A stretch of DNA of 41,138 bases from Dysgonamonadaceae bacterium (GCA_035271465.1 DATERO010000280.1:1-41138); one strand, 5' to 3'; positions 6,009 through 37,432 are shown, counted from the first letter of the stretch. The notes: generated from the sequence alone by a model not told the origin. Program-made: numbers and translations.

Positions 6009-6016
6009 TATATTTG
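6009..6016 (+). promoter_or_regulatory. Bacteroidota-type -7 promoter box upstream of nrdJ
   Basis: TATATTTG matches TAnnTTTG and lies 171 nt upstream of ATG 6187. Confidence 0.35.
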
Positions 6017-6186
6017 AAAAATAAATGTCGATAAACACTTTGTGTTTTCAAACATACAAATGTCAAGACCTTTGATATCATATACATAGCAATAATTACT
6101 TAATAACAACTTGATAATTCTAAACGAATTGGAATTTATCACAATAAATACAACAAATCATTTTAAACCTGTAACGAATTACGTCA

Positions 6187-8929: not shown

Positions 8930-9547
8930 ATGGATGATAGTTATAAAACCATAGAGCATAAAGCAGAGGGATACATTACAGAACGGAAGAGTAAATTTAT
9001 TTCATACATACTCCCAGTTAACACTGAAGAAGAAGTGAAAGAGATTCTTGAAGAGTATCGAAGAAAGCACTATAATGCACGTCATATTTGTTGGGCATAT
9101 ATGCTAGGACACTCACGTGAGGACTTTCGTTCTAATGATGACGGAGAACCTTCTGGCACAGCTGGTCGGCCTATATTGGGACAAATCAATTCCCACGAAC
9201 TCACGAATGTATTAGTATTAGTTGTTAGATATTTTGGGGGAACATTGCTGGGCACAGGTGGATTAGTGCGAGCTTATAAAGAAGCAACTGTTGCTGCTAT
9301 TGAAAATGCAGCAATTGTTGAAAAAACAATAGATAATACATTTGCAATTAAATTTGAGTATCCTTTACTAAATGAAGTGATGCGAATTTTGAACCAATTT
9401 GATGAAGCGAAATGGACACAAAACTTCACAGAAACGTGTGAATTGGAGATTTCAATTCGTCAAACACAATATAAAGAGCTTGCTAAAAAGTTGTCCTCAA
9501 TCTATGGAGTCAATGTGATTAACTTAGATAATCAAGCAGCAGAATAA
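8930..9547 (+). CDS. yigZ: IMPACT/YigZ family protein (UPF0029)
   Basis: Motifs HICWAY and DDGEPSGTAGRPIL are hallmarks of the YigZ/IMPACT N-terminal domain. The -7 box TATTTTTG at 8917-8924 ends only 5 nt before the ATG, which suggests a near-leaderless transcript. Confidence 0.85.
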   Translation: MDDSYKTIEHKAEGYITERKSKFISYILPVNTEEEVKEILEEYRRKHYNARHICWAYMLGHSREDFRSNDDGEPSGTAGRPILGQINSHELTNVLVLVVRYFGGTLLGTGGLVRAYKEATVAAIENAAIVEKTIDNTFAIKFEYPLLNEVMRILNQFDEAKWTQNFTETCELEISIRQTQYKELAKKLSSIYGVNVINLDNQAAE

Positions 9548-9600
9548 TTTCATTTAACAACTAATTAACCCAATTAGTCGCAATAGTAATACAAAATTTG

Positions 9601-9608
9601 TACTTTTG
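9601..9608 (+). promoter_or_regulatory. Bacteroidota-type -7 promoter box for topA
   Basis: TACTTTTG matches TAnnTTTG. It overlaps the track's TTG start at 9606, which argues for ATG 9660 as the true start. Confidence 0.4.
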
Positions 9609-9659
9609 CCACCTGAAATATTTCATTACAACCCGTTTAGGATTAAAGAAAGGAAGTTC

Positions 9660-12092: not shown

Positions 12093-12138
12093 ATAACAAT
12101 CAACTTTAAGTTCGATTCGATATTTAATTAAATAAAAA

Positions 12139-12170
12139 AGTTCAGAGTTTGGCAACTCTGAACTTTTGTT
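12139..12170 (+). terminator. Rho-independent terminator after topA
   Basis: agttcagagtt-tggc-aactctgaact followed by tttgtt. Confidence 0.7.
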
Positions 12171-12238
12171 CATTAATAATGTTTTATATATGAAGAGTGT
12201 ATCCAAATTTCCCTATCTAACCTTCAAGCACAAAAACT

Positions 12239-12472
12239 ATGAGTAAACTATTAAATATGTGTAAAGCTATATGTGTAACGTTTATATCCCTCTTATCCAC
12301 TAAAATTGCTTCCGCACAAGATATACTCAACAATACAGATGTTGATATTATAACTACAGAGTTTAATGATAATCCATTCTATGCTCAACTATGGTTTTGG
12401 ATTGTTATAGGATTAGTGTTTCTTCTTATCTTGATAGCTTTATTACGTGGTGGAGGTAAAAAAAAGGATTAA
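12239..12472 (+). CDS. Small hypothetical membrane-anchored protein
   Basis: N-terminal signal-like segment ending ASAQ, one C-terminal TM helix (LWFWIVIGLVFLLILIALL) and a basic tail. No recognisable family. Confidence 0.35.
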   Translation: MSKLLNMCKAICVTFISLLSTKIASAQDILNNTDVDIITTEFNDNPFYAQLWFWIVIGLVFLLILIALLRGGGKKKD

Positions 12473-12578
12473 CGATAAGAAAGATAATAATTACATGCAT
12501 TGATTATAATTAAATGTAATATTCATACTAGATCTAAACCAAATATTAATACGAGTATACTCCTAAAGATCTTTTATT

Positions 12579-13136
12579 TTAGTAGAGTAAGAAACCCGCC
12601 AACCCTGCAAGTGCAATCAATAGAATAGGATCAACTTTTTTGACAGATGCAAGAAAGACAACTCCAAAGATAGCCCAGCTCTTATAGTCAATAAAATTAA
12701 ATCCATTTATCAACATAATACCAGCAGCTGCAATTAAACCAATTACTGCTGGTTTAATTCCAAACAAGGCTGCACGTACATACCTATTTTCATTAAATTT
12801 AAAAAAGAATGCAACTACTAATGTCATAATACCAAAAGAAGGTAGACTGACCGCAAGAGTACAAATTGCTGCACCAAATATACTTGCTAATGTCGAATGG
12901 CCGCCACTGTTCACTGCTTTGTAACCAATAAATGTAGCAGAATTAAATGAAATAGGTCCAGGTGTGGTTTGAGAGATAGCAACAATATCAGTGAATTCAC
13001 TTACAGTAATCCACTCGTTTGACACTACTACTTCCTGCTGAATAAGTGGCAACATTGCATACCCGCCACCAAAACCAAATAACCCAATCTTAAAGAATGA
13101 GAAAAACATAGAGAGATATAGTTGAAACAGCAGCAT
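12579..13136 (-). CDS. chrA: Chromate ion transporter (CHR) family protein, short-chain half 2
   Basis: FKIGLFGFGGGYAMLPLIQ motif of the CHR family at about 185 aa. Its start overlaps the stop of the upstream paralogue. Confidence 0.85.
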   Translation of the reverse strand: MLLFQLYLSMFFSFFKIGLFGFGGGYAMLPLIQQEVVVSNEWITVSEFTDIVAISQTTPGPISFNSATFIGYKAVNSGGHSTLASIFGAAICTLAVSLPSFGIMTLVVAFFFKFNENRYVRAALFGIKPAVIGLIAAAGIMLINGFNFIDYKSWAIFGVVFLASVKKVDPILLIALAGLAGFLLY

Positions 13137-13137
13137 T

Positions 13138-13689
13138 TTATCTATTAATTACTTTTTTAATAAACATATGATATAGAATACCCAAAGCAATTCCCAACAC
13201 TATAATTAAGATGGGGGAAACATGAAATAGTCCAACAACTAATGCTACTCCTATAGGAATCCAAAGTGTTTTCAATGTAATATCTGCATTTTTCCCCATT
13301 CTCAACAACGGTGCAAATATAAGAGCAACCACAGCAGGACGGATCCCTTTGAAAACAGCTTCAACTACATCATTTTCACGAAACTGTGTGAAAACAATAA
13401 CCAATAAAAGAATAGTTACAAAAGAAGGAAGAATTATTCCGAGACTTGAAAAGATACTGCCTTTTACGCCTTTGTGTTTGTTGCCTACAAAAATAGCTGT
13501 GTTCAGAGCAATCGGGCCAGGCATTGATTGAGCTATAGCAAGCATATCAATAAACTCTTTGTCATCTAGCCATTTTTTTTTATCTACCACTGCATCTTGA
13601 ATTAGTGGTAGCATTGCATAACCTCCACCAAATGTGAAAGCACCAATTTTAAAAAACACCAAAAACAACTCCCAATAACTCTTTTTCAT
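13138..13689 (-). CDS. chrA: Chromate ion transporter (CHR) family protein, short-chain half 1
   Basis: FKIGAFTFGGGYAMLPLIQ motif. I chose start ATG 13689 (MKKSYWELF...) because the 13755 start would translate through a terminator hairpin and U-run, and it gives an N-terminal length matching the paralogue. Confidence 0.85.
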   Translation of the reverse strand: MKKSYWELFLVFFKIGAFTFGGGYAMLPLIQDAVVDKKKWLDDKEFIDMLAIAQSMPGPIALNTAIFVGNKHKGVKGSIFSSLGIILPSFVTILLLVIVFTQFRENDVVEAVFKGIRPAVVALIFAPLLRMGKNADITLKTLWIPIGVALVVGLFHVSPILIIVLGIALGILYHMFIKKVINR

Positions 13690-13710
13690 CTTTTCAGCTA
13701 TATAAATGCA

Positions 13711-13763
13711 ATTAAAAAAGAAAAAAGCAGACTGCATCAAATTAATTAATTGCAAATCTGCTT
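13711..13763 (-). terminator. Intrinsic terminator/attenuator in the chrA leader
   Basis: Minus strand reads AAGCAGA...UCUGCUU (plus an inner UGCA pairing) followed by UUUUCUUUUUU. It sits between the structured leader and the start codon at 13689. Confidence 0.6.
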
Positions 13764-13776
13764 CTTTTATATTAAA

Positions 13777-13953
13777 GCCGCACCGGTGGAATAAGACGAA
13801 ACTCCTGTAGACAGGATTTGAGTGCCTCGCTGCCTCTGTAATTCGCTGTGCATTAAAAATGCATATCCCGCAGGATGCGACCCGCCATTAGCAACAAAAA
13901 CTTTACTCGTTTCATAGATGTAATTGATGAGTTTCCCAATCGACCAATGCGGC
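13777..13953 (-). promoter_or_regulatory. Candidate cis-regulatory structured RNA (riboswitch-like leader) of unassigned class
   Basis: Locally GC-enriched 177 nt. Minus-strand ends form a 10-bp closing helix GCCGCAUUGG/CCGGUGCGGC. A second helix is GAAACUC/GAGUUUC. Internal hairpins are AUCC(UGCG)GGAU, closed by a cUNCGg tetraloop, and UGCAUU(UUU)AAUGCA. A -7 box lies upstream and a terminator downstream. Confidence 0.5.
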
Positions 13954-13978
13954 AAAATTGTTCCCTTTAATTACATAT

Positions 13979-13986
13979 CAAAAGTA
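13979..13986 (-). promoter_or_regulatory. Bacteroidota-type -7 promoter box for the chrA leader
   Basis: The minus strand reads TACTTTTG, about 25 nt upstream of the first base of the closing helix. Confidence 0.35.
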
Positions 13987-14320
13987 ACAAAACATTTCCA
14001 CACTTCCAAACATAATGATGTTAAAAGTCAGCCATCAATCACATATATGCGCACTACTTCAGTGTTTGACCAGTAAATTACACGATATCTCATAGCCTTT
14101 GATATAATTTCATTATCAGTAAATTATTCGCTAATTCGTTGATTTGATATTTATAATAAAAGGCGATGTTAATCATGATATTTTCATACAAATACTAAAA
14201 AGATAATCATGTGTTGTAAATCCTATTCTTTGTTAGTTTAAAATATAGATTATCTTACTCAAAATCTTATTCAAAGCCATTTTAAACGCTATTTAATCGT
14301 GCCATTTGAAATTTTATTCC

Positions 14321-14328
14321 TAAATTTG
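14321..14328 (+). promoter_or_regulatory. Bacteroidota-type -7 promoter box for TetR-fabG
   Basis: TAAATTTG matches TAnnTTTG and lies 27 nt upstream of ATG 14355. Confidence 0.4.
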
Positions 14329-14351
14329 CACATTAATCATCTAAATGTGCA
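14327..14351. promoter_or_regulatory. Inverted repeat, candidate TetR autoregulatory operator
   Basis: TGCACATT-N9-AATGTGCA overlaps the -7 box and ends 3 nt before the TetR start codon. Confidence 0.45.
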
Positions 14352-14354
14352 TCT

Positions 14355-14939
14355 ATGTCGTCAATTAAAACCAGAGAAATGTTCATGGAAAAAGCCAGGC
14401 AGCTTTTTGCTAAATCGGGCTTTGAAAATACCACCATGAACGATATCGCAGAAGCTTCTCAAAAAGGACGTCGTACATTATATACGTATTTTAGCAATAA
14501 AAAGGAAATTTACAACGCCGTTATTGAGTCTGAGCTGGAAGCCCTATATGTTCAATTGCAAAAAACAGTAGACAGGGAAACTACTGCCACCGATAAGTTA
14601 CTCCTGTTTTTCATTACCCGTCTGGAGATCATCAAAGAAGTTGTTACTAGAAATGGTACACTCAGAGGTGATTTTTTTCGAGATATTTTCCGTGTTGAAA
14701 ATGTTAGAAAAACATTCGATAGGAAAGAAATCAGTTTCTTGAAAATGATTTTAGATGAAGGTATTGAATCCAATGAGTTTGAGATGGTTGATAGTATGCA
14801 AACTGCTCGCATTCTTCACTTTGCTCTAAAAGGATTAGAGGTTCCATATATAAGAGGTGTAATGACTCACGATCCTAAAGACTCAATAGATCGCACAACC
14901 GTTGCAAATTTAATATTCAAAGGAATTTTAAAAAAGTAA
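14355..14939 (+). CDS. TetR/AcrR family transcriptional regulator
   Basis: N-terminal HTH FENTTMNDIAEASQKGRRTLYTYF. Size and helical C-terminal domain are typical of TetR. Confidence 0.9.
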   Translation: MSSIKTREMFMEKARQLFAKSGFENTTMNDIAEASQKGRRTLYTYFSNKKEIYNAVIESELEALYVQLQKTVDRETTATDKLLLFFITRLEIIKEVVTRNGTLRGDFFRDIFRVENVRKTFDRKEISFLKMILDEGIESNEFEMVDSMQTARILHFALKGLEVPYIRGVMTHDPKDSIDRTTVANLIFKGILKK

Positions 14940-14974
14940 ATATTTTTTCAAAGTCATTTTAACAAAAGAATAAT

Positions 14975-15721
14975 ATGAAACTATTAGAAGGAAAAACTGC
15001 AATTGTTACTGGTGCTGGTCGCGGTATTGGAAAAGCAATTGCATTGCGTTTTGCGGAAGAAGGTGCAAATATTGCATTCACTGATCTTTCAATTGATGAA
15101 AATGTAAAAGCAACAGAAAAAGAGATTGCAGCATTAGGCGTAAAAGTGAAAGGTTATGCTTCCAATGCAGCAAGCTTTGATGATACCCACAAAGTAATTG
15201 AGCAAATAAAAGAAGATTTTGGTATAATTGATATTCTTGTAAATAATGCAGGCATCACTCGCGATGGCTTAATGATGCGTATGGATGAGAAACAATGGGA
15301 TATGGTAATCAATGTAAACTTGAAGTCTGCATTCAACTTTACTCATGCACTTACACCAATTATGATGCGACAAAAAAGTGGTAGTATAATTAACATGAGT
15401 TCAGTGGTTGGTGTTTCTGGAAATGCAGGTCAGGCTAACTACTCGGCCTCTAAAGCAGGAATGATTGGATTGACCAAGTCGATGGCTAAGGAGATTGGCT
15501 CGCGCAACATTCGTGTGAATGCAATTGCACCAGGCTTTATTATTACAGAGATGACTGGCGCATTGTCTGAAGAAGTCCGCAAGCAATGGGCACAACAAAT
15601 CCCTTTGCGTCGAGGTGGAACTCCTGAGGATGTTGCAAATACGGCATTATACTTAGCTTCCGACCTTTCGTCATATGTTAGTGGTCAGGTAATAAACGTT
15701 TGTGGTGGAATGAATACATGA
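14975..15721 (+). CDS. fabG: 3-oxoacyl-[ACP] reductase (SDR family)
   Basis: [12 protein letters not shown] cofactor motif, NNAGITRD, and catalytic YSASKAG. Confidence 0.85.
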
Positions 15722-15786
15722 TATAAATTTTCACATCGATTTTGACATATTATATTACTTGCACATAATATAATATCAATACAATA

Positions 15787-15825
15787 ACAGAGTAGAGTCG
15801 TAATAAACTGCGCATCTACTTTGTT
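15787..15825. terminator. Bidirectional hairpin between fabG and a minus-strand small ORF
   Basis: acagagtag/ctactttgt stem with one mismatch. T-rich on the plus side and T-rich in the minus-strand reading as well. Confidence 0.4.
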
Positions 15826-15839
15826 GTATGTGCTAATAA

Positions 15840-15983
15840 TTATTTAGGCTTCTTTGTTTCGCTCTTCTTATCAGCAGGTTCTTTGCCTGCTGTACTTGTG
15901 TCTTTATTAATACCATCTTTAGGCGCTTTTGTGCCTTCAGTAGATTTGACAGGATTTTTTGACTTTCCTTTTCCTTTATCCAT
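15840..15983 (-). CDS. Possible 47-aa lysine-rich small protein (below the ORF-track cutoff)
   Basis: Hand translation gives MDKGKGKSKNPVKSTEGTKAPKDGINKDTSTAGKEPADKKSETKKPK*. A hairpin follows the stop. Two longer overlapping track ORFs (15833-16069 minus, 15883-16122 plus) have less protein-like composition. The coding status of all three is uncertain. Confidence 0.25.
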   Translation of the reverse strand: MDKGKGKSKNPVKSTEGTKAPKDGINKDTSTAGKEPADKKSETKKPK

Positions 15984-16207
15984 AACATTCTTTGTTTATA
16001 TTCCGCCTGTTTTTTTTCGAGTTCCTGGAAATATAACATTTCATGGATATTTTTGTTTGCTGCACACACCTACTTATTTCAACTACCAACAGTTAATTAA
16101 TACCATTTTAGGTCACTTTTGATCTAAATATTCCTCTTTATTGAGATCTGCTTTATACTCATTCCGTTTTCTTTCTACATATCAAAGACCAACTGCTTTT
16201 TTTTTAG

Positions 16208-16215
16208 TATTTTTG
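16208..16215 (+). promoter_or_regulatory. Bacteroidota-type -7 promoter box for the pta operon
   Basis: TATTTTTG lies 77 nt upstream of ATG 16292. Confidence 0.4.
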
Positions 16216-16291
16216 TAAGAATCGAATTTTAGTAACTCAAAACCTTATATAAATTCAAGGCTAATAAGAAAAAAATCAATTAAAAACCACT

Positions 16292-17317
16292 ATGAAACTA
16301 ATAGAAGGCATCATTGCCCGTGCAAAAGTGAACAAACAACGTATTGTGCTTCCTGAAAGTACAGAAGAGCGTACGTTAAGAGCTGCAGACTTACTTATCA
16401 AAGATGGAGTTGCAGAAATAATACTAATAGGCGATGAGTCAGAAATTTATGAGAAAGCGAAAAAAATAAACCTGCTGCATATTAAAGATGCAACCTTTAT
16501 AAATCCTGATAAAAACAGCAAGAAAACAGAATACGTAAACCTGCTTATTGAATTAAGAAAGCACAAAGGAATAACATCTGACAAAGCTGAACAGCTTGTG
16601 AAAGACCCATTATTTTTAGCTTGCTTAATGATTAAGAACGGAGATGCTGATGGAGAAGTTGCTGGAGCAGAAAATACTACAGGTAATGTTTTACGTCCTG
16701 CATTACAGATTGTCAAAACTTCGCCAGGAATAAAAGTTGTATCAGGAGCTTTCTTAATGTTTACATCGTTTACTGAATATGGAGACAATGGTGTGTTACT
16801 CTTTGCAGATTGTGCTGTTATGCCCAATCCCAATGCTAGGGAATTGGCACAAATAGCAATTTCATCAGCTCAAACATGGAAAGCACTCATTGGTAAAGAG
16901 CCACGCGTAGGTATGTTGAGTTACTCAACTAATGGCAGTGCAAAGCACGAAATGATAGATAAAGTGGTTGAGGCAACAAAAATAGCAAAAGAGATGAATC
17001 CAGACTTAATAATTGATGGAGAGCTTCAAGCAGATGCTGCAATTGTTCCCTCTATTGCTAATTGCAAAGCACCCAATAGTGTACTGGGAGGTAAAGCCAA
17101 TGTGTTGGTATTCCCAACGTTAGAGTCAGGGAACATTTCATATAAACTAGTTCAACGATTAGGTAATGCTGAAGCTATAGGTCCTATACTTCAAGGTATG
17201 GCTGCTCCTATAAATGATTTATCGCGGGGTTGCACTGTAGAAGATATATACCGAATGGTGGCTGTTACTGCAAACCAAGCAATTGAGAGTAAAAAGACAA
17301 ATAAAATATACAAATGA
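16292..17317 (+). CDS. pta: Phosphate acetyltransferase (short form)
   Basis: PTA_PTB-domain motifs (RIVLPE, ADGEVAGA, GPILQG), about 340 aa, and cotranscribed with ackA. Confidence 0.9.
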   Translation: MKLIEGIIARAKVNKQRIVLPESTEERTLRAADLLIKDGVAEIILIGDESEIYEKAKKINLLHIKDATFINPDKNSKKTEYVNLLIELRKHKGITSDKAEQLVKDPLFLACLMIKNGDADGEVAGAENTTGNVLRPALQIVKTSPGIKVVSGAFLMFTSFTEYGDNGVLLFADCAVMPNPNARELAQIAISSAQTWKALIGKEPRVGMLSYSTNGSAKHEMIDKVVEATKIAKEMNPDLIIDGELQADAAIVPSIANCKAPNSVLGGKANVLVFPTLESGNISYKLVQRLGNAEAIGPILQGMAAPINDLSRGCTVEDIYRMVAVTANQAIESKKTNKIYK

Positions 17318-27923: not shown

Positions 27924-28093
27924 ATAAATTTATCAAAACGTAAAACGATTAAGTAATAAAATGGAAGATATTGCTTTATTTTCATTACATTTTAACACCT
28001 AAAATCATCAATGCACTTTAATTGCAAATTGGGCATAAATGTAATTTGCAAGCTTAATAGCTTAACTACATTCTATTTCTTAAATTTTAATCC

Positions 28094-28101
28094 TATCTTT
28101 G
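28094..28101 (+). promoter_or_regulatory. Bacteroidota-type -7 promoter box driving riboswitch 1
   Basis: TATCTTTG is identical to the box ahead of riboswitch 2. Confidence 0.5.
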
Positions 28102-28107
28102 CACAGA

Positions 28108-28293
28108 TTTTTGGTGTCATTCACTTCAGTTTAAACTTCGAGGTTAATGATTAAAAGGGAATCAGGTGTAAGTCCTGAACAGACCCGCTGCTGTAAGCTC
28201 AACAAAAATCCTTGTGCAATACTCAACATCCACTGTCTCGCCATTGCGAGATGGGAAGGGCGCACAAAGGATGAGTAAGTCAGAAAACCTGCC
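28108..28293 (+). promoter_or_regulatory. Cobalamin riboswitch (aptamer), copy 1
   Basis: Core AAAAGGGAAUCAGGUGUAAGUCCUGAACAGACCCGCUGCUGUAAGC, CCACUGU...GGGAAGG, and B12-box-like AAGUCAGAAAACCUGCC. Confidence 0.9.
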
Positions 28294-28327
28294 ATAAATA
28301 TTCTAGACAAACGTTCTCGGGAATTGG

Positions 28328-28366
28328 AACAATTGATCAGGCCCATGGGCCCTGGCCTCAATTGTT
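28328..28366 (+). promoter_or_regulatory. GC-rich hairpin in the riboswitch-1 expression platform
   Basis: AACAATTGA...TCAATTGTT encloses GGCCCATGGGCCCTGGCC. It lies 33 nt before ATG 28399 and has only a weak U-tract after it. Confidence 0.5.
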
Positions 28367-28398
28367 ATATTTAATATATAATTAATTTAAAGCTAAAA

Positions 28399-30057
28399 AT
28401 GAGAAGAATGAGATTGTATGCGATATTAATCGCAATGGTAACTTTTGTGGCTTGTAATGACGAAGATTTTGACTCAATACTAACAACAGATTTAGAAACG
28501 GAGACATTTATATTCTCTGCCGAAGGTGGAAAACAAACATTTGTACTCGAAAGCAATGACAAATGGTTTGTAAGTGAATTACCTGAATGGTTAAACGTAG
28601 AAGTAAAAGATTTTGAAGAGATTTCAGCAAGAAGCGTTTCCTACACTAAAGGCAAGAAAGAAGTAACAGTTATTGTAAAAACAAATCCAGATTATGAAGA
28701 GCGAAGCAGCGAAGCCATTTTATCCACAATAAATGGGACAATATTGAAGCTTACAATAACACAAGAAAAGAAAACAAAGCTTCTAACAGATTTAGAGTCT
28801 AACGAATTAAATTTCTCCTATCGTGGAGGTCAACATTCCTTTTTGCTAGAAAGCAATGAGGAGTGGACCATCAATGACATACCCAGTTGGTTGTCAGTTT
28901 CTGTTATAGATGTCGAGGAAGTTGATGTGCGTAGCACTTCGTATGAGAGTGGTGAAAAAGAAATCACCATTACTGCAGAAGTAAACAGTCAATTTGAGAC
29001 ACGTTCAGCTGAGATCACTTTAACATCACTGAAAAATCAGACAATCATCCTAGAAGTTGTGCAAGAAAAGAAACCGGAACTCGTAGGCTATTGGATTTTG
29101 AGTGAAGGATATGCAGGAAGTGACAATTCTGAAATCGCCTGGTTTGATAATGCAACAGGCATACTAACTAAAAAGCATTTCAAAACTATAAATGGAACAA
29201 CTTTAGGTGACACAGGTAATGCTCTGAAAATTTATGGTAGTAAAATGTACGCTGTTATAAGTGGCTCTGGCTTCGGGGCAAATACTCCTCATGGCACCAG
29301 CTACATTGAAGTGATTGATCCAAAAAACGGAAAATCGATTAAGCGTATTCAATTTACAAATACTGGAGGTGATGCAGCTAAACCACGCAACATCATCTTT
29401 GAAGGCGGATTTGGATACATTACTAGCTATTCTAATGAATTAGTTCGCTTAGACACATTAACTTTGGAATTTGATTCGCGAGCAGCACTGTCTGGAAAGT
29501 TGGCTGAAGGTTTAGCATATAGCAATGGATATATATATGTGTGTAACTCAGGACAAGGAGAGGATAACAAAATATCAGTTGTAAATACTGAAACTATGGA
29601 AGAAACAAAAATTATCACCTCACCAATGAATCCTACTGGAATTGTGGCTACTAGTAGTGGTGAAATTTACTTCAATACAAATTATCCTGAATATAAACTT
29701 TACAAACTGACAGAAGATGATAATTATGAAGAGTTGCAAGGATTGAGTGTCGCTGATATGATATATACAAACAACAATATATATACAAGTTCTTTCGATT
29801 GGGGAACTTACATGGGTGAAGTTAACCAATTTAACACGACAACACATACTCACACTAAGCTAGGTCTTGATTTAAAAAGTGTCGGAATTGACATGCTTAT
29901 GGAGTATCACATTGGAACAATAAATGAATCGGATGATCTATACTTATCTGGAATGGGGCAGGATGTTATAATCTTTGATCCTGCAACACTGGAGATCAAA
30001 CACGCATTTCAAACAGGCGTAGCAAATGGGTCGGGAGTTGTTGCAGTTTATAAATAA
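28399..30057 (+). CDS. Surface lipoprotein: two tandem BACON-like Ig domains plus a BtuG/YncE-like (DUF5074-type) beta-propeller
   Basis: Lipobox TFVAC (Cys19). Two repeats of about 100 aa fit the BACON pattern (F.FSAEGG.QTF.LESN..W...P.WL.V...KEVTV...N...E.RS.E..L...L.ITQ). The C-terminal region starts GYWILSEGY...LGDTGN, paralleling FYLLNEGN...LGDVGN in the propeller gene at 34056. Confidence 0.8.
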   Translation: MRRMRLYAILIAMVTFVACNDEDFDSILTTDLETETFIFSAEGGKQTFVLESNDKWFVSELPEWLNVEVKDFEEISARSVSYTKGKKEVTVIVKTNPDYEERSSEAILSTINGTILKLTITQEKKTKLLTDLESNELNFSYRGGQHSFLLESNEEWTINDIPSWLSVSVIDVEEVDVRSTSYESGEKEITITAEVNSQFETRSAEITLTSLKNQTIILEVVQEKKPELVGYWILSEGYAGSDNSEIAWFDNATGILTKKHFKTINGTTLGDTGNALKIYGSKMYAVISGSGFGANTPHGTSYIEVIDPKNGKSIKRIQFTNTGGDAAKPRNIIFEGGFGYITSYSNELVRLDTLTLEFDSRAALSGKLAEGLAYSNGYIYVCNSGQGEDNKISVVNTETMEETKIITSPMNPTGIVATSSGEIYFNTNYPEYKLYKLTEDDNYEELQGLSVADMIYTNNNIYTSSFDWGTYMGEVNQFNTTTHTHTKLGLDLKSVGIDMLMEYHIGTINESDDLYLSGMGQDVIIFDPATLEIKHAFQTGVANGSGVVAVYK

Positions 30058-30166
30058 CCATTAAAGAACATTTGCTTTATACTTATGTTCTGTTAGTAGA
30101 ATAAATAAAAGATACGGATATAATTACGAAGAATATAAATACTAAACTGACTAAATAACAAAAAAA

Positions 30167-31510
30167 ATGAAAGGATTTAGATTATATGCGATTTTACTCG
30201 CATTCATATCATTTGCAGCATGTAGTGATGACGATTTTGATTCGATAATAACTACAGACTTAGAAACTGAGACATTGGCATTTGCAGCCGAAGGTGGTAA
30301 ACAAACATTTGTTCTTGAAAGCAATGATAAATGGTTTATTGACAAACGTCCAGATTGGTTAATCGTAGAAGTAAAGGATTTAGAGGAAATAACCGTTAGA
30401 AGTGGCTCTTATACCGAAGGAAGAAAAGAAGTAACTGTTGTTGCCGCAGCTAATCTTGAAAATGAGATCCGCACTGTAGAGTTAATACTATCAACACTCA
30501 ATGGAAAGATGGTGAAATTGACAGTTACTCAAGATAAGCAACTCGCTCTTGCAGGCTATTGGATTCTGAGTGAAGGATATACTGGACAAGCAAATGCAGA
30601 ATTGGCTTGGTACGACATTGCTAAAAATAAGGTTTTAGAAAAACAATTTTCAGCATTAAATGACAAACCTTTGGGTGATACTGGAAATCAGTTGGCATTA
30701 TATGGAAGCAAAATGTACGTTATCGTGACAGGTGGTGGATTTACTACTGAAACATCAAGCGATGACAGCTATATTGAAGTAATCAACCCTTATGATGGAA
30801 AATCAATCAAGCGTATTCCTTTCAAAAATGTGGAAGGAACTCCTGCAAAACCGCGCAACATTATTTTTGAAGGTGGATATGGTTATGTTAGTAGTTACTC
30901 CAACGAAGTAGTTCGTTTAGATACTGCTTCACTTACGCTTGATGAGCATGCTGCATTAAGTGGAACAATGGCAGAAGGACTTACCTATAATAATGGAAAC
31001 TTATACGTTAGCAATGGTGGACAGGGGTTTGACAATAAAATATCTGTTGTAGATGTTGAAAACATGGAAGAAACTAAAGTTATTTCTACGGCTTATAATC
31101 CAAACCATATCGTATCTGTAAGCAATGGAGACATCTACTTCAATACAGACTGGCCAGAGTATAAATTATACAAACTAACCATTGCCGACGAAGAAGTAAC
31201 CGAGGTGCCAGGCCTTAGTGTTGCAGATTTAACTTTCAGCAACAACAATATATATACAAGCTTTTATGACTGGGATAATTCAAAGGGATCCGTCAATGAA
31301 TTGAACATTGCTACGTCTGAAGTTACAGAACTTAATCTTGAATTAGGAAGCTCTGAATATCATATTGGCACAATCAATGGTTCAGACCTACTTTATCTCA
31401 CAGGAATGGGTGATGATATTGTAATCTTTGATCCAGTTACAAAAGAAATTAAACACTCATTCGCAACAGGTGTTCCTGGAGGAAGTGGTGTTGTAGCAGT
31501 CTATAGATAG
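30167..31510 (+). CDS. Surface lipoprotein: one BACON-like domain plus a BtuG/YncE-like beta-propeller (paralogue of 28399-30057)
   Basis: Lipobox SFAAC (Cys19). Clearly collinear with the upstream gene by eye, apart from the missing second BACON repeat, and ends ...GSGVVAVYR versus ...GSGVVAVYK. Confidence 0.8.
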   Translation: MKGFRLYAILLAFISFAACSDDDFDSIITTDLETETLAFAAEGGKQTFVLESNDKWFIDKRPDWLIVEVKDLEEITVRSGSYTEGRKEVTVVAAANLENEIRTVELILSTLNGKMVKLTVTQDKQLALAGYWILSEGYTGQANAELAWYDIAKNKVLEKQFSALNDKPLGDTGNQLALYGSKMYVIVTGGGFTTETSSDDSYIEVINPYDGKSIKRIPFKNVEGTPAKPRNIIFEGGYGYVSSYSNEVVRLDTASLTLDEHAALSGTMAEGLTYNNGNLYVSNGGQGFDNKISVVDVENMEETKVISTAYNPNHIVSVSNGDIYFNTDWPEYKLYKLTIADEEVTEVPGLSVADLTFSNNNIYTSFYDWDNSKGSVNELNIATSEVTELNLELGSSEYHIGTINGSDLLYLTGMGDDIVIFDPVTKEIKHSFATGVPGGSGVVAVYR

Positions 31511-31548
31511 AAGTTTCTATTAGGTAGAAGTAAAATTATAATTTATTG

Positions 31549-31601
31549 CGAGATGCATGGTAAAGAATATAAACATTCTTCACCGAGCATCTCGTTTTTT
31601 T
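31549..31601 (+). terminator. Rho-independent terminator ending riboswitch unit 1
   Basis: cgagatgc/gcatctcg stem (with inner gaat/attc pairing) followed by T7. Confidence 0.75.
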
Positions 31602-31666
31602 ACAAATATCTAGTCTCATAAAATAATATAGAAGTTAAATACATTCTATATTATTAATTTAATACT

Positions 31667-31674
31667 TATCTTTG
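31667..31674 (+). promoter_or_regulatory. Bacteroidota-type -7 promoter box driving riboswitch 2
   Basis: TATCTTTG. Confidence 0.5.
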
Positions 31675-31680
31675 TCCTAG

Positions 31681-31867
31681 AATTTTGGTGCTACATGTTT
31701 CAACAATGCTTCGAAACAATGTGGTGAAAAGGGAATCAGGTGAAAGTCCTGAACAGACCCGCTGCTGTAAGCTCAACCAAAATCCTTGTGCAAAACTCAC
31801 AAACCACTGTCTCGCCTCGGCGAAATGGGAAGGACGCACAAAGGATGAGCAAGTCAGAAAACCTGCC
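31681..31867 (+). promoter_or_regulatory. Cobalamin riboswitch (aptamer), copy 2
   Basis: Same core as copy 1 with a few substitutions, including changes in the helix CUCGCCAUUGCGAG versus CUCGCCUCGGCGAA. B12 box AAGUCAGAAAACCUGCC. Confidence 0.9.
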
Positions 31868-32001
31868 AGAATTAAATAAATGTTTCAAAATGCTTTCGGG
31901 GAATAAAGCTTGAGAACGACTTGGTAATTCAATTTTTTGATTGCTCTTTTCGCATACCTTCGTTTTTACTCTTTTATTCTATCGGAATAATATTTCGATA
32001 A

Positions 32002-34059
32002 ATGTTCTCATTTCATAAAACAACCTTCTCTTTTCTCTTCGCACTCTTTGTGCTGAGCAATACTGTTGTGCTTGCACAATACCAAACAGACAGTTTGCAA
32101 TATCTACCCGAAGTGGTGATAACAATTGGCAGCACATATAAAGAAGTGATTCCTGCACAAAAGCTTTCGGGCGAAGAGTTGAAAACTCTTAACAGTTTTT
32201 CTGTTGCTGATGCTATCCGATATTTCTCAGGCGTACAAATTAAAGATTACGGAGGCATTGGTGGTCTAAAAACTGTCAATGTGCGAAGCCTTGGGACAAA
32301 CCATGTAGGAGTTTTTTACGATGGCATTCAATTGGGCAACGCGCAAAATGGACAAATCGACTTAGGGAAATTTTCACTTGATAATATCGAAGAGATTTCA
32401 TTGTACAATGGACAAAAGAGCGACATATTACAAACTGCAAAGGATTATGGTTCGTCTGGGTCTGTCTATCTTCGTTCTCGATCTCCAAGATTTGAATATG
32501 GTAAGAAGCAAAATCTTAAAGCTGTTATAAAAACAGGCTCTTTCGACCTCATTAATCCATCCGTGCTCTACGAGTACAAAATCAACAATGATTTAAGTGC
32601 ATCTATTAATGGTGAATACATCAAATCATCGGGCAAATACAAGTTTAGGTACAAACGTGTTCTTCCAGGAACATCGGAGGTAATGTATGACACAACTGCG
32701 GTCAGACAAAATGGAGATATCGAATCAATACGCCTTGAGGCTGGATTATATGGGCTACTATCTCAAGGACATTGGAAATGGAAAAACTATTTCTACAACT
32801 CCGAAAGAGGAATGCCTGGTGCAATTGTAAACAATCGATGGATGAATCCTCAACGTCAATGGGACAGAAGCTTTTTCACTCAAGCATCATTGCAAAAAGC
32901 ATTTGGTAACAATTACGAACTCCAAGCAAATGCAAAGTATGCTCATGACTACATGCGCTATCTCAATCCCGATACCACACTCATGTTGATTGACAATTCG
33001 TTTCGACAACAAGACCTTTATGCATCCTTAGCAAACAGATATACTATTTTGCCCAATTGGGATGTCTCTTTGTCAACAGATATACAATATAACACCCTTA
33101 CTTCAGACATGGCAGGTTTCATTTTCCCCAAACGATTGACAACACTAGTAGCATTAGCAAGTGCTGTTGAAATAGGGAAAGTGAAAGTGCAAGGAAGTGC
33201 ATTGGGTACTTTCGTAAACGAAAGAACTGATAGAGGAACAACTGATGATGGTGAATCTATAAAGTCTGCACCTAACAAAAAAGAGTTCACTCCTGCCCTA
33301 TTCGCATCATACAAACCATTTTCGAATCACAACTTCAATATCAGAGCATTTTATAAAAACATCTTTAGGATGCCTACGCTTAATGATTTGTATTATACTG
33401 ATATAGGCAATGCAAACCTGAAACCAGAGTTCACACATCAATACAACTTAGGTTTTCAGTATTCAAAATCATTTAAGAACAGATTGGTAAAGCAAGCAGA
33501 CTTTCAAGCAGATGGATACTACAACGAGATTACAAATAAAATTGTAGCAATACCAAAAGGAAGCGGACAGTATCGCTGGATGATGATGAACTATGGATAT
33601 GTGGAAATACGTGGTGTGGATATAGCAACATCAGCATTGTTAGAGCCTTATAAAGACCTGTTCATCAACTTAAAATTGACCTACACTTATCAAAAAGCAC
33701 AAGATTTCACAGAACGTATCAGCGAAGAGTTGCAGCAAACCACCTACGGTGGACAAATTGCGTACATTCCTTGGCATAATGGCTCAGCCATTGCAAGCAT
33801 CAATTACAAATCGTGGCAATTGAACTATAGTTTCATATATGTAGGAGAACGTTATCATTCATCAGCAAATATTCGAGAAAACTATGAACAACCTTGGTAC
33901 ACAAATGACATGGCGTTGATAAAAAACATTGAATATAAGAAGATGAAGATGAGAGTTAGTGCAGAAGTGAATAACCTCTTAAGTCAAGACTACGAAGTAG
34001 TGCTCAACTACCCCATGCCAAAAAGAAATTACAAACTTTCATTGACTTTTGAAATATGA
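32002..34059 (+). CDS. btuB: TonB-dependent outer-membrane receptor, vitamin B12/corrinoid type
   Basis: Signal peptide ...VVLAQ, TonB-box-like LPEVVIT, and plug motifs (FSVADAIRYFSGVQIKDYGG, VRSLGTNHVGVFYDG). The 685-aa size is typical of BtuB. It lies directly downstream of a cobalamin riboswitch. Confidence 0.85.
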   Translation: MFSFHKTTFSFLFALFVLSNTVVLAQYQTDSLQYLPEVVITIGSTYKEVIPAQKLSGEELKTLNSFSVADAIRYFSGVQIKDYGGIGGLKTVNVRSLGTNHVGVFYDGIQLGNAQNGQIDLGKFSLDNIEEISLYNGQKSDILQTAKDYGSSGSVYLRSRSPRFEYGKKQNLKAVIKTGSFDLINPSVLYEYKINNDLSASINGEYIKSSGKYKFRYKRVLPGTSEVMYDTTAVRQNGDIESIRLEAGLYGLLSQGHWKWKNYFYNSERGMPGAIVNNRWMNPQRQWDRSFFTQASLQKAFGNNYELQANAKYAHDYMRYLNPDTTLMLIDNSFRQQDLYASLANRYTILPNWDVSLSTDIQYNTLTSDMAGFIFPKRLTTLVALASAVEIGKVKVQGSALGTFVNERTDRGTTDDGESIKSAPNKKEFTPALFASYKPFSNHNFNIRAFYKNIFRMPTLNDLYYTDIGNANLKPEFTHQYNLGFQYSKSFKNRLVKQADFQADGYYNEITNKIVAIPKGSGQYRWMMMNYGYVEIRGVDIATSALLEPYKDLFINLKLTYTYQKAQDFTERISEELQQTTYGGQIAYIPWHNGSAIASINYKSWQLNYSFIYVGERYHSSANIRENYEQPWYTNDMALIKNIEYKKMKMRVSAEVNNLLSQDYEVVLNYPMPKRNYKLSLTFEI

Positions 34060-35246
34060 AAAAGATGAATAAAACATACATAACGAAAGCATTAATATCA
34101 CTCATTGCCCTCATTCTCATGATTAGCTTCACAGCTTGTCGTGACGATGTTGAGTTGAATCTATCGGAAAATACTGATGTAGATTCACCAGGTGTGATAG
34201 GAGACTATCAAGGTTTCTATTTATTGAATGAAGGAAACATGGGGAACAACAAATCAACCCTCGACTTTTATGATTTTGAAACTGGAGTTTACACAAAAAA
34301 TATTTATGCAGAAAGAAACCCTACAGTACCCAAGGAGTTAGGTGATGTTGGCAATGACATAGGTATATATGAAGGAAAATTATATGCAGTAATAAACACA
34401 TCCAACAAAGTAGAAGTAATGGATGCTGTGACAACTAAGCGTATTGGACAAATAGATATTCCCAATTGTCGATTTATTAAATTTCACGATGGCTATGCCT
34501 ATGTAACCTCGTATGCAGGACCTGTGATAATTGATCCAAACTATCAACAGTTAGGTTATGTTGCAAAAATAAACACTACCACACTAAAGCAAGAAGACCG
34601 ATGCCTGGTAGGCTTCCAGCCCGACGAATTAGAAATAGTGGATGGTAAAATATATGTTGCCAACTCAGGTGGTTATATGGGTGCAGGAAATACATCAGGA
34701 TATGAGCGAAACGTTTCTGTAATAGACATTGCTACTTTTAAAGAAGAAAAGCGTATTGATGTTGCTGATAATTTAGAACGTATTAAAGCGGACAAGCGAG
34801 GCAACTTATGGGTGAGTTCGCGTGGTGATCACGGTAATCTTCCTCCACGTCTCTTCTTTATTGATAAGGAAAAACAGCAGGTTACAGACACCATTAATAT
34901 TCCTGCCAGCAATTATTGGTTGGACGATGATTTGCTCTACGCTTATGGAAGTGAAGATGGTAATTATTCTGAGGGGGCTTATTCATATCACATAGTGGAC
35001 ACCAAAACACATGAGATTGTCACCAAACAGATTATCACAGATGGAACTGACAAGAAGATTGAGAAACCATACGGCATCATGGTACATCCCGAAACAAAAG
35101 ATATATACATTACCGATGCAGGCAATTATGTTACGACAGGGATATTGTACTGCTTTGATAAAGATGGAAAGAGAAAGTGGAGCGTAGCTGCGGGAGATAT
35201 ACCCGCACACTTTGCATTGCTACCTGCCTCTAAACAAACCGATTAA
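34056..35246 (+). CDS. BtuG-like surface lipoprotein (YncE/DUF5074-type beta-propeller)
   Basis: Lipobox FTAC (Cys28). FYLLNEGNMGNNKSTLDFYD start motif and repeated blade-like segments. Its ATGA start overlaps the btuB stop. Confidence 0.8.
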   Translation: MKKMNKTYITKALISLIALILMISFTACRDDVELNLSENTDVDSPGVIGDYQGFYLLNEGNMGNNKSTLDFYDFETGVYTKNIYAERNPTVPKELGDVGNDIGIYEGKLYAVINTSNKVEVMDAVTTKRIGQIDIPNCRFIKFHDGYAYVTSYAGPVIIDPNYQQLGYVAKINTTTLKQEDRCLVGFQPDELEIVDGKIYVANSGGYMGAGNTSGYERNVSVIDIATFKEEKRIDVADNLERIKADKRGNLWVSSRGDHGNLPPRLFFIDKEKQQVTDTINIPASNYWLDDDLLYAYGSEDGNYSEGAYSYHIVDTKTHEIVTKQIITDGTDKKIEKPYGIMVHPETKDIYITDAGNYVTTGILYCFDKDGKRKWSVAAGDIPAHFALLPASKQTD

Positions 35247-35279: not shown

Positions 35280-36737
35280 ATGAAACAGAGAATTATTTAC
35301 ACGTTATTGATTGTATTTGCAGCCTTTACTTCTTGTAAAGACGATGCAGAAGTTATATTAGCTCCTGTTATCTCGGGAATCGATAAGACATACACTATAG
35401 TTGAAGGTAGAAAGTTGGAGTTATCGCCAACCATTGAGAATGGAAATAATGCGACTTATTTATGGCAATTGGATGGAGAAGAAGTAGCTCAAACACCGAA
35501 CTATGTGTTTGAAGAATCAAACCCAGGAGAATACACGTTGATCTTAAAAGTTGGAAACGAAAGTGGTACGGACGAAGCAAAAACATCTATTACTGTTGGA
35601 GCAAAAGATATGACAATTGAAGGGGCGGCACACACATTAATATCCTTAGAGCTACCTGACTATATGAAAGGGAATGGAGACCTCGCATGGAGTGTACTTG
35701 AAGCGCCTTCGGAACTTTACCGATTTTCTCAAATGAATGCCGAGGAAGCACCTCTATTTATTGCTGCTGAAGTAGGGACCTATTTAATGCAAGTAAGCTC
35801 AGGCGATATAAATGGTGAAGTGACTATTATTGTTAGTGAAAATGAGAACGAACTATCGTCTTACATTGCCAATGTGTTTGACTACCTCCCAGCTCCAGGA
35901 CAGTTTGTAAATAAAATGCCTGTTTATGAAGAAGGTGACACACATGAAGATATGGTGGCAAAAGTAGCAGAAAAAATTACGGGTGAGAACTCAGGATTTA
36001 TTACTCTTGGCGGTTGGGGTGGATATGTAACTTTTGGTTTTGACCACACCATAGTTAATGTTGCTGGTAAACAAGACTTTCGCATTGAAGGAAATGGATT
36101 TACTAATAGCAGCGAGCCTGGAATTGTAATGGTTTCATATGATGCAAATGGTAACGGCGAACCAGATGATGAATGGTATGAAATTGTGGGTAGTGGAAAC
36201 TTCACTGCAGAAAATGAAGAGTGGTATCAATCTGCTTTAGAAACTGGTAATGACGTTAATACCTATCGTGACTTTGAAATGACATACTATAGACCTGAAG
36301 TAGAAGAAAATGCTCCTCTTAAAGAGTATATCCGCTGGACAAATAACAAAGACCAAGAAGGTTATAAAGAGAAAAACTCATTTCACAAACAATCCTACTT
36401 TCCTCTTTGGGTAGATGCCGATGAAATTACATTTAATGGCGTGCGTTTGGCTCAAAGTGGTGTTGATGCAAGTGGTCAAGGTAGCTTCTTTACTTTAAAA
36501 AGCTACAAATATGGATATGCTGACAACCACTCAAATTCGGATAACAGATCTACTTTTGATATTGACTGGGCAATTGACAAAGATGGAAATAAAGTAAACT
36601 TACCAGGTATTGACTTCGTAAAAGTATATACGGGAGTTGACCAAGAGAATGGTTGGATAGGCGAAAACTCTACAGAAGTAGGCAGAGGAAGTGACTTACA
36701 CCTACTTGGAACAAGTATTAATACAATAAAAGAATAA
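35280..36737 (+). CDS. Surface lipoprotein with two N-terminal PKD/Ig-like domains and a C-terminal domain of about 300 aa with unknown function
   Basis: Lipobox FTSC (Cys19). The Ig-like repeats are TYTIVEGRKLELSP...YTLILKVGNESGTDEAKTSITV and a second similar module. Last gene of the riboswitch-2 unit. Confidence 0.75.
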   Translation: MKQRIIYTLLIVFAAFTSCKDDAEVILAPVISGIDKTYTIVEGRKLELSPTIENGNNATYLWQLDGEEVAQTPNYVFEESNPGEYTLILKVGNESGTDEAKTSITVGAKDMTIEGAAHTLISLELPDYMKGNGDLAWSVLEAPSELYRFSQMNAEEAPLFIAAEVGTYLMQVSSGDINGEVTIIVSENENELSSYIANVFDYLPAPGQFVNKMPVYEEGDTHEDMVAKVAEKITGENSGFITLGGWGGYVTFGFDHTIVNVAGKQDFRIEGNGFTNSSEPGIVMVSYDANGNGEPDDEWYEIVGSGNFTAENEEWYQSALETGNDVNTYRDFEMTYYRPEVEENAPLKEYIRWTNNKDQEGYKEKNSFHKQSYFPLWVDADEITFNGVRLAQSGVDASGQGSFFTLKSYKYGYADNHSNSDNRSTFDIDWAIDKDGNKVNLPGIDFVKVYTGVDQENGWIGENSTEVGRGSDLHLLGTSINTIKE

Positions 36738-36773: not shown

Positions 36774-36820
36774 GAAAGAGGTGTTATATATTTGGAAGTA
36801 TATAATGCCTCTTTCTTTTA
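36774..36820. terminator. Bidirectional hairpin terminator between the B12 unit and the RAYT gene
   Basis: gaaagagg...cctctttc with inner ttatata/tatataa pairing, followed by tttt. Confidence 0.65.
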
Positions 36821-36835
36821 TTGGTAACAAGTATA

Positions 36836-37432
36836 TCAAAGTTTATAAAAACAATCTTTTTCCCAATTTTCTACATTTGTATCTATATAATTAGAAATAC
36901 GATCATAATCTTCATCTTTCTGAATGATATGATCGTGAAACCGTGATTGCCATTTGAAAACGAACCCCAACCTGTTGACGTGTTTAGTTACAGCCGATTT
37001 ATAGGATCCAATAATGGAAGACACAGAATTTTTACCAATATTTTGAAACCGAGATTGTCCGATTGTTTTTGGTGGTGTTGCCCGTAGTAGAGACAGGGCA
37101 TGCCCTGTCTCTACTATCGCCGTTTCTACATGCCCTGTCTCTTCAATTTCATCACCATTCCCCGACAATATTAATATACCATGAATATGATTGGGCATAA
37201 CTACAAATGAACCTAATTCTACATTTCTTGAATGGTTTGGTATTTGATGCCATATTATATCAGCTATGACACCTATATTCGATAACTGCATATTGTAAGC
37301 ATTGTCTATTTCTCCAAAATAATGCTCCCTATCTTGTGTGCAAATTGTAATAAAATATGAAGCTGCCCAACGATAATCCCACGATTGTAATCGTGAAGAT
37401 GCTATGCGGTATTTGTTTTGGAATTTAGTCAC
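36836..37432 (-). mobile_element. REP-associated tyrosine transposase (RAYT / IS200-like Y1 HUH transposase) gene
   Basis: HUH motif MPNHIHGILIL and a C-terminal Tyr motif ISNYIDTNVENW. Single gene with no flanking IS inverted repeats seen. Confidence 0.8.
37085..37116. repeat. 32-bp perfect palindrome inside the RAYT ORF, with a 14-nt direct repeat of one arm
   Basis: TAGTAGAGACAGGGCA|TGCCCTGTCTCTACTA. CATGCCCTGTCTCT recurs at 37129-37142. The segment is translated in frame as ETGHVETAIVETGHALSLL. Confidence 0.85.

Follow-up and report, generated by a model that had tools for sequence, protein, structure and literature searches.

BACON-stalked propeller lipoproteins of the BtuG lineage as putative accessory corrinoid-capture proteins in Dysgonomonadaceae

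We describe a two-gene unit in a 41,138-nucleotide (nt) stretch of DNA from a Dysgonamonadaceae bacterium (GCA_035271465.1, DATERO010000280.1:1-41138), here called the window, whose first letter is the origin of all window coordinates. Behind a cobalamin riboswitch lie exactly two open reading frames (ORFs), A (28399-30057, 552 amino acids, aa) and B (30167-31510, 447 aa), each encoding a predicted lipoprotein with a BtuG-type beta-propeller held behind one or two BACON domains. Judged by their sequences, A and B are propellers of the BtuG lineage that have been uncoupled from BtuB, and they are neither members of the BtuK group nor canonical BtuG proteins. They are a new form of accessory B12-capture protein, a class already known in Bacteroidota, and not a new kind of system; since BtuK, BtuH, and BtuJ are already known, a specialist will be little surprised. 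We consider it probable that both proteins are accessory corrinoid-capture lipoproteins, exposed on the cell surface and probably vesicle borne, which feed the neighboring BtuB-BtuG(-BtuH) system.

A two-gene unit between a cobalamin riboswitch and a terminator

The features of the unit are as follows.

28094-28101, plus strand: Bacteroides-type -7 promoter box TATCTTTG (TAtcTTTG) at the 5' edge of riboswitch 1, recognized by consensus only
28095-28310, plus strand: cobalamin riboswitch aptamer 1 (RF00174), found with Rfam
28328-28366, plus strand: expression-platform hairpin AACAAUUG...CAAUUGUU with A/U-rich sequence after it; the start codon of A is about 30 nt further on
28399-30057, plus strand: gene A, predicted surface lipoprotein of 552 aa (ORF, Pfam, family profile, AlphaFold2)
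28399-28455, within A: signal peptide and Cys19
28477-28767, within A: BACON 1
28777-29067, within A: BACON 2
29074-30054, plus strand, within A: seven-bladed BtuG-type propeller
30167-31510, plus strand: gene B, predicted surface lipoprotein of 447 aa (ORF, Pfam, AlphaFold2)
30167-30223, within B: signal peptide and Cys19
30245-30535, within B: BACON
30542-31507, within B: BtuG-type propeller
31548-31601, plus strand: intrinsic-terminator-like hairpin with seven T, closing the two-gene unit (folding)

Riboswitch 1 covers the full cobalamin model (positions 1-189) and scores 95.4 bits, where the gathering score is 31.5 (E = 1.1e-22). A sequence-only reading of this DNA had placed it at 28094-28293; the riboswitch is indeed there, and its 3' end had been set about 17 nt short of the true one at 28310. 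The 109-nt spacer between A and B contains no terminator-like site or riboswitch in the Rfam and terminator scans, and no transporter gene lies between riboswitch 1 and the terminator. The terminator consists of a 48-nt hairpin (31548-31595) followed by the seven T, with a folding energy of -33.1 kcal/mol and a z-score of -7.52, none of 200 shuffled sequences being equally stable. It was found by folding, its long loop having escaped a pattern-based scan with a loop limit of 8 nt. The layout put forward by the sequence-only reading, namely, a promoter box and a riboswitch followed by two genes and a terminator with no transporter among them, was thereby borne out by Rfam, the ORFs, and folding. 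The leader hairpin at 28328-28366 is part of the centroid structure, and its stem is kept in seven orthologous leaders in which the loop varies.

Anchor, stalk, and propeller of proteins A and B

Both proteins carry the lipobox with Cys19 that had been read from the sequence, placed after a hydrophobic signal peptide and followed by an acidic stretch (C-NDEDFD in A and C-SDDDFD in B). In 91 of 95 relatives, two or more of the six residues that follow the cysteine are acidic. Such a stretch after the lipidated cysteine is a mark for surface export in Bacteroidota, according to Lauber et al. (2016) as cited in PMC6143338, suggesting that A and B are surface exposed.

Between the lipidated cysteine and the propeller lie two BACON domains in A and one in B, as had been proposed. 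The Pfam BACON family (PF13004, cut-off 25) matches A in two stretches with 35.4 bits and B just below the cut-off with 24.7 bits, and the BACON domain of B is 66% identical to BACON 1 of A. BACON 2 of A is only 42 to 43% identical to either of these, which points to an older internal repeat. The Pfam search of A and B found no PKD family. The BACON regions of both proteins are modeled as beta-sandwiches, and the family profile, built from 61 members and searched against the PDB sequences, matches the BACON domain of BoGH5A (PDB ID 3ZMR) at 2e-5.

The C-terminal regions are BtuG-type propellers, the assignment that the sequence-only reading had drawn from short motifs. DUF5074 (PF16819, cut-off 27.2) is matched with 46.8 bits in A and 41.1 bits in B, and the two proteins are 56% identical over BACON 2 and the propeller. 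A single-sequence search of the PDB covered only the first 200 or so propeller residues, and the family profile was needed to span the whole propeller. With the profile, the best match is the BtuG1 propeller (BT1490; PDB ID 8PTD, 8PTF, and 8BLW_B) at 8.5e-59 over residues 14-318 of 342, followed by BtuG2 at 1e-9 and BtuG3 at 5e-9, whereas BtuK1 (PDB ID 9S6C) is reached only at 0.02 over about 60 residues and BtuK2 (PDB ID 4R5O) yields no match.

The AlphaFold2 structures support this relationship, having a predicted local distance difference test (pLDDT) score of 89.0 and a predicted template modeling (pTM) score of 0.76 for A, and 90.7 and 0.81 for B. The Foldseek search of the PDB returned BtuG1 as the best match for both, with a template modeling (TM) score of 0.81 for model A (PDB ID 8PTF and 8PTD; root mean square deviation, 2.7 to 2.9 Å) and 0.82 for model B, the deviation over both models being 2.6 to 2.9 Å. 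BtuG2 and BtuG3 come next, all three BtuG proteins being B12-bound, and BtuK1 appears at rank 18 to 19 with TM scores of 0.59 to 0.66. Both models thus fold as BtuG-like propellers. In BLAST comparisons, the A and B propellers are 52 to 68% identical to those of the BACON-propeller family, 41% identical to a DUF4988-propeller protein of a related locus (L024), 35% identical to BtuG1 over 200 aa, and 25 to 30% identical to cognate BtuG proteins; the scores against BtuK-like proteins, 22 to 27 bits, are not significant.

A family of BACON-propeller proteins linked to B12 control

The BACON-propeller family comprises about 100 clusters at 90% identity, all from Bacteroidales metagenomes or metagenome-assembled genomes (MAGs), and its members are annotated as "hypothetical" or "BACON domain-containing." At 98% identity, the Dysgonomonadaceae MAG L001 is the closest genome, and other members come from Proteiniphilum, Petrimonas, Dysgonomonas, and Prevotellaceae-labeled MAGs. 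One BACON domain is present in 63 clusters, two in 31, and three in a single cluster (P0002, 652 aa). The profile was also run against 1.84 billion representatives of 50%-identity clusters, where about 25 of the top 150 are covered end to end by BACON and propeller, the rest being plain BtuG proteins of 350 to 370 aa, BtuGH-type fusions, and large multi-BACON proteins. The recurrence of the full architecture in about 100 clusters at 90% identity, and in about 25 of those top 150 at 50%, rules out a chance or annotation artifact.

We subjected 26 related loci, with flanks of up to 10 kb that are in some cases short on one side, to an Rfam scan and gene calling. A cobalamin riboswitch lies within about 200 nt upstream of the BACON-propeller gene in 16 of them. 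Four of these 16 show a second riboswitch and btuB downstream, as in the window (L003, L004, L010, and L015); 11 have no btu gene in the available flanks (L002, L008, L016, L017, L019, L020, L021, L022, L025, L026, and L028); and the last is a 2-kb contig whose flanks are too short to class (L009). In six further loci the gene lies within a riboswitch-headed btu operon (L006, L011, L012, L018, L027, and L024), five of which have the order btuB-btuG-btuH, and in the remaining four it belongs to a btu operon whose 5' end runs off the contig (L005, L007, L013, and L014). No locus among the 26 contradicts B12 control, and the link between BACON-propeller genes and cobalamin riboswitches that was seen in the window is conserved in its relatives.

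The tandem arrangement of a 552-aa and an approximately 450-aa protein recurs in L080, at 72% identity, and in L081 to L084, which are samples of the window's own lineage. The locus syntenic with the window, L004, has a single gene with one BACON domain. Wherever btuB was encountered, be it in the window or in a related locus, a btuG of its own with a short linker stands next to it.

The neighboring transporter unit

Together with the unit that follows it, the A-B unit makes up a larger B12 locus, of which it is the front half. The second unit contains the following features.

31667-31884, plus strand: second -7 box (31667-31674) and cobalamin riboswitch 2 (31669-31884), heading btuB-btuG-btuH
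32002-34059, plus strand: btuB, TonB-dependent B12 receptor (Pfam Plug and TonB-dependent barrel; partial match to TIGR01779)
34056-35246, plus strand: cognate btuG, which overlaps the btuB end and encodes a short-linker lipoprotein with a propeller (DUF5074, 83.2 bits)
35280-36737, plus strand: btuH-like lipoprotein with PKD_3 and a predicted C-terminal BtuH-type B12-binding domain
36774-36815: terminator-like hairpin past the btuH-like gene (terminator scan)

Riboswitch 2 also matches the full model (positions 1-189), at 92.9 bits against 31.5 (E = 5.6e-22). The -7 boxes before the two riboswitches are identical, and both would be expected to act as promoters. The promoter-riboswitch modules (28040-28400 and 31610-32003) share 80% identity along their length and about 90% within the aptamer core, which suggests a local duplication, by which the A-B unit and the transporter unit gained separate B12 control. 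The window btuG product matches BtuG1 (PDB ID 8BLW_B) over its full length at 4e-37 and is only 26% identical to A. The C-terminal domain of the btuH-like product matches the C-terminal domain of BT1490 at 1.4e-61 and BtuH2 (PDB ID 7BIZ) at 1.1e-47.

Comparison with BtuK, BtuG, BtuH, and BtuJ

The closest parallel in layout, described in 2025-2026, is found in operon 1 of Bacteroides thetaiotaomicron, where BtuK1 and BtuK2 (BT1486 and BT1487; PDB ID 9S6C and 4R5O) are tandem PKD-plus-propeller lipoproteins encoded behind a riboswitch and upstream of btuB1, BtuK1 being a cyanocobalamin binder (PMC12751083; PMC13616437). A and B likewise are tandem lipoprotein genes with immunoglobulin (Ig)-like domains and a propeller, with a cobalamin riboswitch before them and btuB after them. 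The best matches of the window BtuG and BtuH-like proteins are the two domains of BT1490 (BtuGH), and the transporter genes are of the same subtype as at the BtuK locus. The stalk, however, is built of BACON in A and B and of PKD in BtuK, and the propeller falls outside the BtuK lineage by profile (E = 0.02 for 9S6C), by BLAST (22 to 27 bits), or by structure (TM scores of 0.59 to 0.66, compared with 0.81 to 0.82 for BtuG1). In addition, the A-B pair has its own terminator, and the window transporter has a second riboswitch.

Orthology of A and B with BtuK, to which the shared position and tandem layout could point, is ruled out by the sequences and by coexistence. The operons of L006 and L011 encode, next to the BACON-propeller protein, a BtuK2-like PKD_3-plus-propeller protein (4R5O at 6e-9), and the presence of both in one operon indicates separate lineages.

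The nearest known proteins are the B12-binding lids of BtuB, namely, BtuG1, BtuG2, and BtuG3 (the BT1490 propeller, BT1954, and BT2095; PDB ID 8PTD, 8BMX, and 8P98; PMC6143338 and PMC10404256). A and B share with them the DUF5074 domain, the fold, the lipobox, the export signal, an acidic surface, and, by alignment, the core positions that contact the corrin amides, and BtuG1 is the nearest of the three in sequence. They differ from BtuG in having 100 to 200 BACON residues between the anchor and the propeller, in genes that are neither next to nor cotranscribed with btuB, in lacking the phenylalanine that stacks on 5,6-dimethylbenzimidazole (DMB), in carrying a 12-residue insertion, and in being only distantly related to the cognate BtuG (26% identity, as given above for A).

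These similarities and differences bear on whether A and B could be alternative lids of the neighboring or another BtuB, as canonical BtuG is in its stable complex with BtuB. Their propellers are of the BtuG1 lineage, and 106 of 112 BtuG homologues in gut strains sit in btuB operons (PMC6143338). However, the lipid anchor of BtuG2 is joined to its propeller by a short linker that is held against the BtuB barrel (PMC10404256), whereas one or two BACON domains intervene in A and B; each btuB in the window and in the related loci already has its adjacent short-linker btuG; and in 11 loci the riboswitch is followed by a lone BACON-propeller gene, btuB being absent from the flanks covered. The intervening stalk and the btuG of each btuB make a lid role unlikely, and we give it very little credence.

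Accessory lipoproteins under riboswitch control are also known in BtuH2 (BT1956) and BtuJ (DUF4465), B12 binders of the cell surface or of vesicles that belong to the same regulon and are proposed to serve as an antenna or reservoir for BtuBG (PMC13616437). A and B resemble both in this respect, and BtuH2 also in bearing the binding domain on an Ig-like stalk, which is PKD in BtuH2. The fold is what separates them, being a propeller in A and B, a globular domain in BtuH, and a jelly-roll in BtuJ. DUF4465 (BtuJ) proteins are also encoded in related B12 operons.

The general form that the sequence-only reading had taken to be undescribed is thus known from BtuK, an outcome that this reading had itself named as counting against it, and what holds of that claim is narrower. 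The literature searched, on BACON together with cobalamin or BtuG and on DUF5074, with subscription-only papers outside it, contained no description of a BtuG-lineage propeller fused to BACON, nor one of its uncoupling from btuB or of its frequent occurrence as a monocistronic riboswitch unit. The theme of the stalked propeller itself reaches beyond BtuK. Other stalked DUF5074 propellers encoded in B12 operons carry DUF4988 (L012, 7314-9212; L024, 3655-5049), PKD_3 (L006, 11385-12764), or PKD (L013, 7875-9227), and one is a 721-aa form (L014, 565-2730). DUF4988 appears to be undescribed in the context of a B12-operon propeller.

The binding face

For comparison of the ligand contacts, BtuG1 (residues 52-360) and BtuG2 (residues 47-271) were rebuilt from printed alignments and aligned with A, B, and the window BtuG by MAFFT; contact lists were taken from PMC13616437 and from bioRxiv 10.1101/2024.02.16.580637, and conservation was counted over the 61 family members. 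Four polar positions are invariant in all 61, these being, in the numbering of A, E236 (E55 of BtuG2), N274 (Q93 of BtuG2, also Asn in BtuG1), R330 (R133 of BtuG2 and R141 of BtuG1), and N411 (Q219 of BtuG2). G237 (G56 of BtuG2) is kept in 58 members and W468 (Y290 of BtuG1) in 60, and Y344 (W149 of BtuG2) is aromatic in 60, as Tyr in 56 and Phe in 4. The equivalent of S131/Q139 is not kept and becomes Lys. The propellers are acidic, with net charges of -17 for A and -23 for B, resembling in this the binding face of BtuG, which has been described as negatively charged.

In our reading, the grip on the corrin amides would be kept and recognition of the nucleotide loop and lower ligand remodeled, which fits corrinoid binding with altered selectivity and is no proof of it. 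The position of the DMB-stacking Phe is Ala in 36 members, Ser in 6, Trp in 5, and Thr in 4. The earlier suggestion that A and B might be specific for different corrinoids finds a concrete lead here, in the replacement of this Phe by Ala, Ser, or Thr. The canonical BtuG of the window (34056-35246) also lacks this DMB-stacking Phe, which is present in all three BtuG proteins of B. thetaiotaomicron (BtuG1, BtuG2, and BtuG3), and has Met (M62) in its place, suggesting that lower-ligand recognition may differ across the lineage as a whole.

Several points weigh against corrinoid capture by A and B. The DMB-stacking Phe (F58 of BtuG2 and F60 of BtuG1, edge-to-face) is replaced by Ala in A and Thr in B, N107 is replaced by Ser or Thr in the alignment of A and B with BtuG, R244 of BtuG1 becomes Asn or Asp, and E249 of BtuG1 is deleted. 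The family also has a 12-residue insertion of its own (residues 289-300 of A; consensus, G-P-G-F-G-x-x-T-x-E-G). It lies at the binding face, immediately behind the residue equivalent to N107, and could block the site in the manner of the loop of the nonbinding BtuK2 (PMC13616437). The invariant positions might simply be part of the DUF5074 structure and not contact a ligand, and the contacts are mapped by alignment alone, with the BtuG2 contacts past residue 271 (W272, Y316, Y335, and I359) outside the map and the placement of S195/Y196 uncertain. Corrinoid binding by the family is, moreover, a property that we infer from fold and conservation. On the side of regulation, the leader hairpin is no more stable than shuffled sequences (z = -0.44) and shows almost no covariation, and control may act either on termination or on translation.

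A and B might instead be nonbinding accessory proteins of the B12 regulon, such as scaffolds or docking partners that bridge, for example, binders or vesicles to BtuBG. BtuK2 offers a precedent, having the propeller fold without cobalamin binding (PMC12751083; PMC13616437), and the absence of the DMB-stacking Phe and of equivalents to R244 and E249 of BtuG1, together with the insertion at the binding face, would suit such a role. For a disused pocket, however, it is unexpected that four polar and two aromatic contact positions stay unchanged, or almost so, in 61 members that diverge to about 33% identity, and both paralogues, A and B, retain the contact positions, unlike the BtuK1/BtuK2 pair. 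We regard a nonbinding role as improbable, though it is the main alternative.

It is also conceivable that the ligand of the propeller is not a corrinoid. It could be a different tetrapyrrole, a B12-carrier protein made by a competitor or the host, or a glycan reached through BACON, with B12 limitation acting as a cue only. BACON is typical of glycan-utilization proteins (PF13004; the family profile matches PDB ID 3ZMR and 8VA4), a SusC/SusD-like pair follows the gene in one locus (L016), and the altered lower-ligand residues leave room for a different ligand. Against this stand the link to a cobalamin riboswitch or btu genes in all 26 loci, the conservation of the corrin-amide contact positions, and the fact that no carbohydrate-active enzyme is encoded within the two-gene unit. 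We consider a ligand of this kind highly unlikely.

Proposed function and its implications

As accessory corrinoid-capture proteins, A and B would be expressed when intracellular B12 is low, riboswitch 1 permitting their expression as its aptamer suggests. They would be lipidated at Cys19, moved to the cell surface by the acidic export signal, and probably loaded into vesicles, as suggested by that signal and by the presence of BtuK, BtuH1, and BtuJ in vesicle proteomes (PMC12751083). By their fold and conservation, the propellers may bind corrinoids on the BtuG face, and by analogy with the relay model (PMC13616437) the corrinoids would then be passed to BtuBG or BtuH.

The one or two BACON Ig-like domains would serve as a passive stalk, placing the propeller some nanometers off the membrane. 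A spacer role is suggested by the variation of the repeat number from one to three and by the BACON domain of BoGH5A, which Larsbrink et al. (2014) reportedly found to be a spacer and not a glycan binder.

More tentatively, and with doubt prevailing on our side, the BtuG fold, so far known as an obligate lid of BtuB, may in Dysgonomonadaceae and related Bacteroidales have been freed as a riboswitch-controlled antenna. One to three BACON domains would tune its reach, the remodeled pocket would shift its corrinoid range, and the monocistronic units would be portable add-ons that carry no transporter and boost B12 uptake or hoard B12 on vesicles. If so, the pocket might accept, for example, cobinamide or purinyl and phenolyl cobamides, which anaerobic digesters commonly contain.

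A 2026 review of the Bacteroides B12 relay names three open points, namely, the roles of BtuK and BtuH, the meaning of multiple paralogues, and whether BtuG scavenges without BtuB (PMC13616437). Since the family propeller could not sit on BtuB in the usual manner and is often encoded without a nearby transporter gene, it would allow a clean test of a stand-alone scavenger or donor of the BtuG fold. The family provides the first B12-linked context for BACON domains, and its altered lower-ligand position is a concrete handle on cobamide selectivity. It would also extend the relay model from human-gut Bacteroides to Dysgonomonadaceae of digester, food, and termite-gut metagenomes.

Further observations on the related loci and the window

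Several neighbors of BACON-propeller genes stand out in the related loci. In L018, an ATP:corrinoid adenosyltransferase gene (BtuR/CobO, 11366-11887, 220 bits) starts one base past the stop codon of the BACON-propeller gene. In L012, a DUF6580 protein of 196 aa (9301-9891, 190 bits) is encoded just 5' of the BACON-propeller gene in the riboswitch-headed btuB-btuG-btuH operon, and the btu operon of L013 includes a 537-aa lipoprotein gene (5983-7596) with a weak match to MACPF_D3 of 23.7 bits, below the cut-off. An extra cobalamin riboswitch is found directly 3' of the BACON-propeller gene in L012 and L013 (11617-11830) and in L018 (12180-12394), where it precedes a ribonucleotide-reductase-like gene (MGNKEIQIQKRDGKRVPF...); the gene for the large subunit of ribonucleotide reductase in the window (6187-8727) has no riboswitch.

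The riboswitch-preceded BACON-propeller gene of L016 (10001-11514) is broken by a frameshift or stop into parts of 397 aa and 104 aa, and the SusC-like and SusD-like pair of that locus (11884-16982) follows it on the same strand. A group II intron domain (RF02001, 150.7 bits) is located in L008 at 11563-11735, about 200 nt past the stand-alone BACON-propeller gene.

In the window, a 198-aa ORF on the minus strand (36836-37432) sits between the btuH-like gene and greA. It has no Pfam match at 1e-5, and it carries an HUH-like motif, VVMPNHIHGILIL, suggestive of a tyrosine transposase associated with IS200 or repetitive extragenic palindromes (REP). The ORF is missing at the same position in the syntenic L004 and is therefore probably an insertion. 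The minus strand also holds, at 13770-13954, a full-length match to the Rfam family Bacteroidales-1 (RF01693, a suggested 6S-like RNA) with 130.7 bits and an E value of 1e-21.

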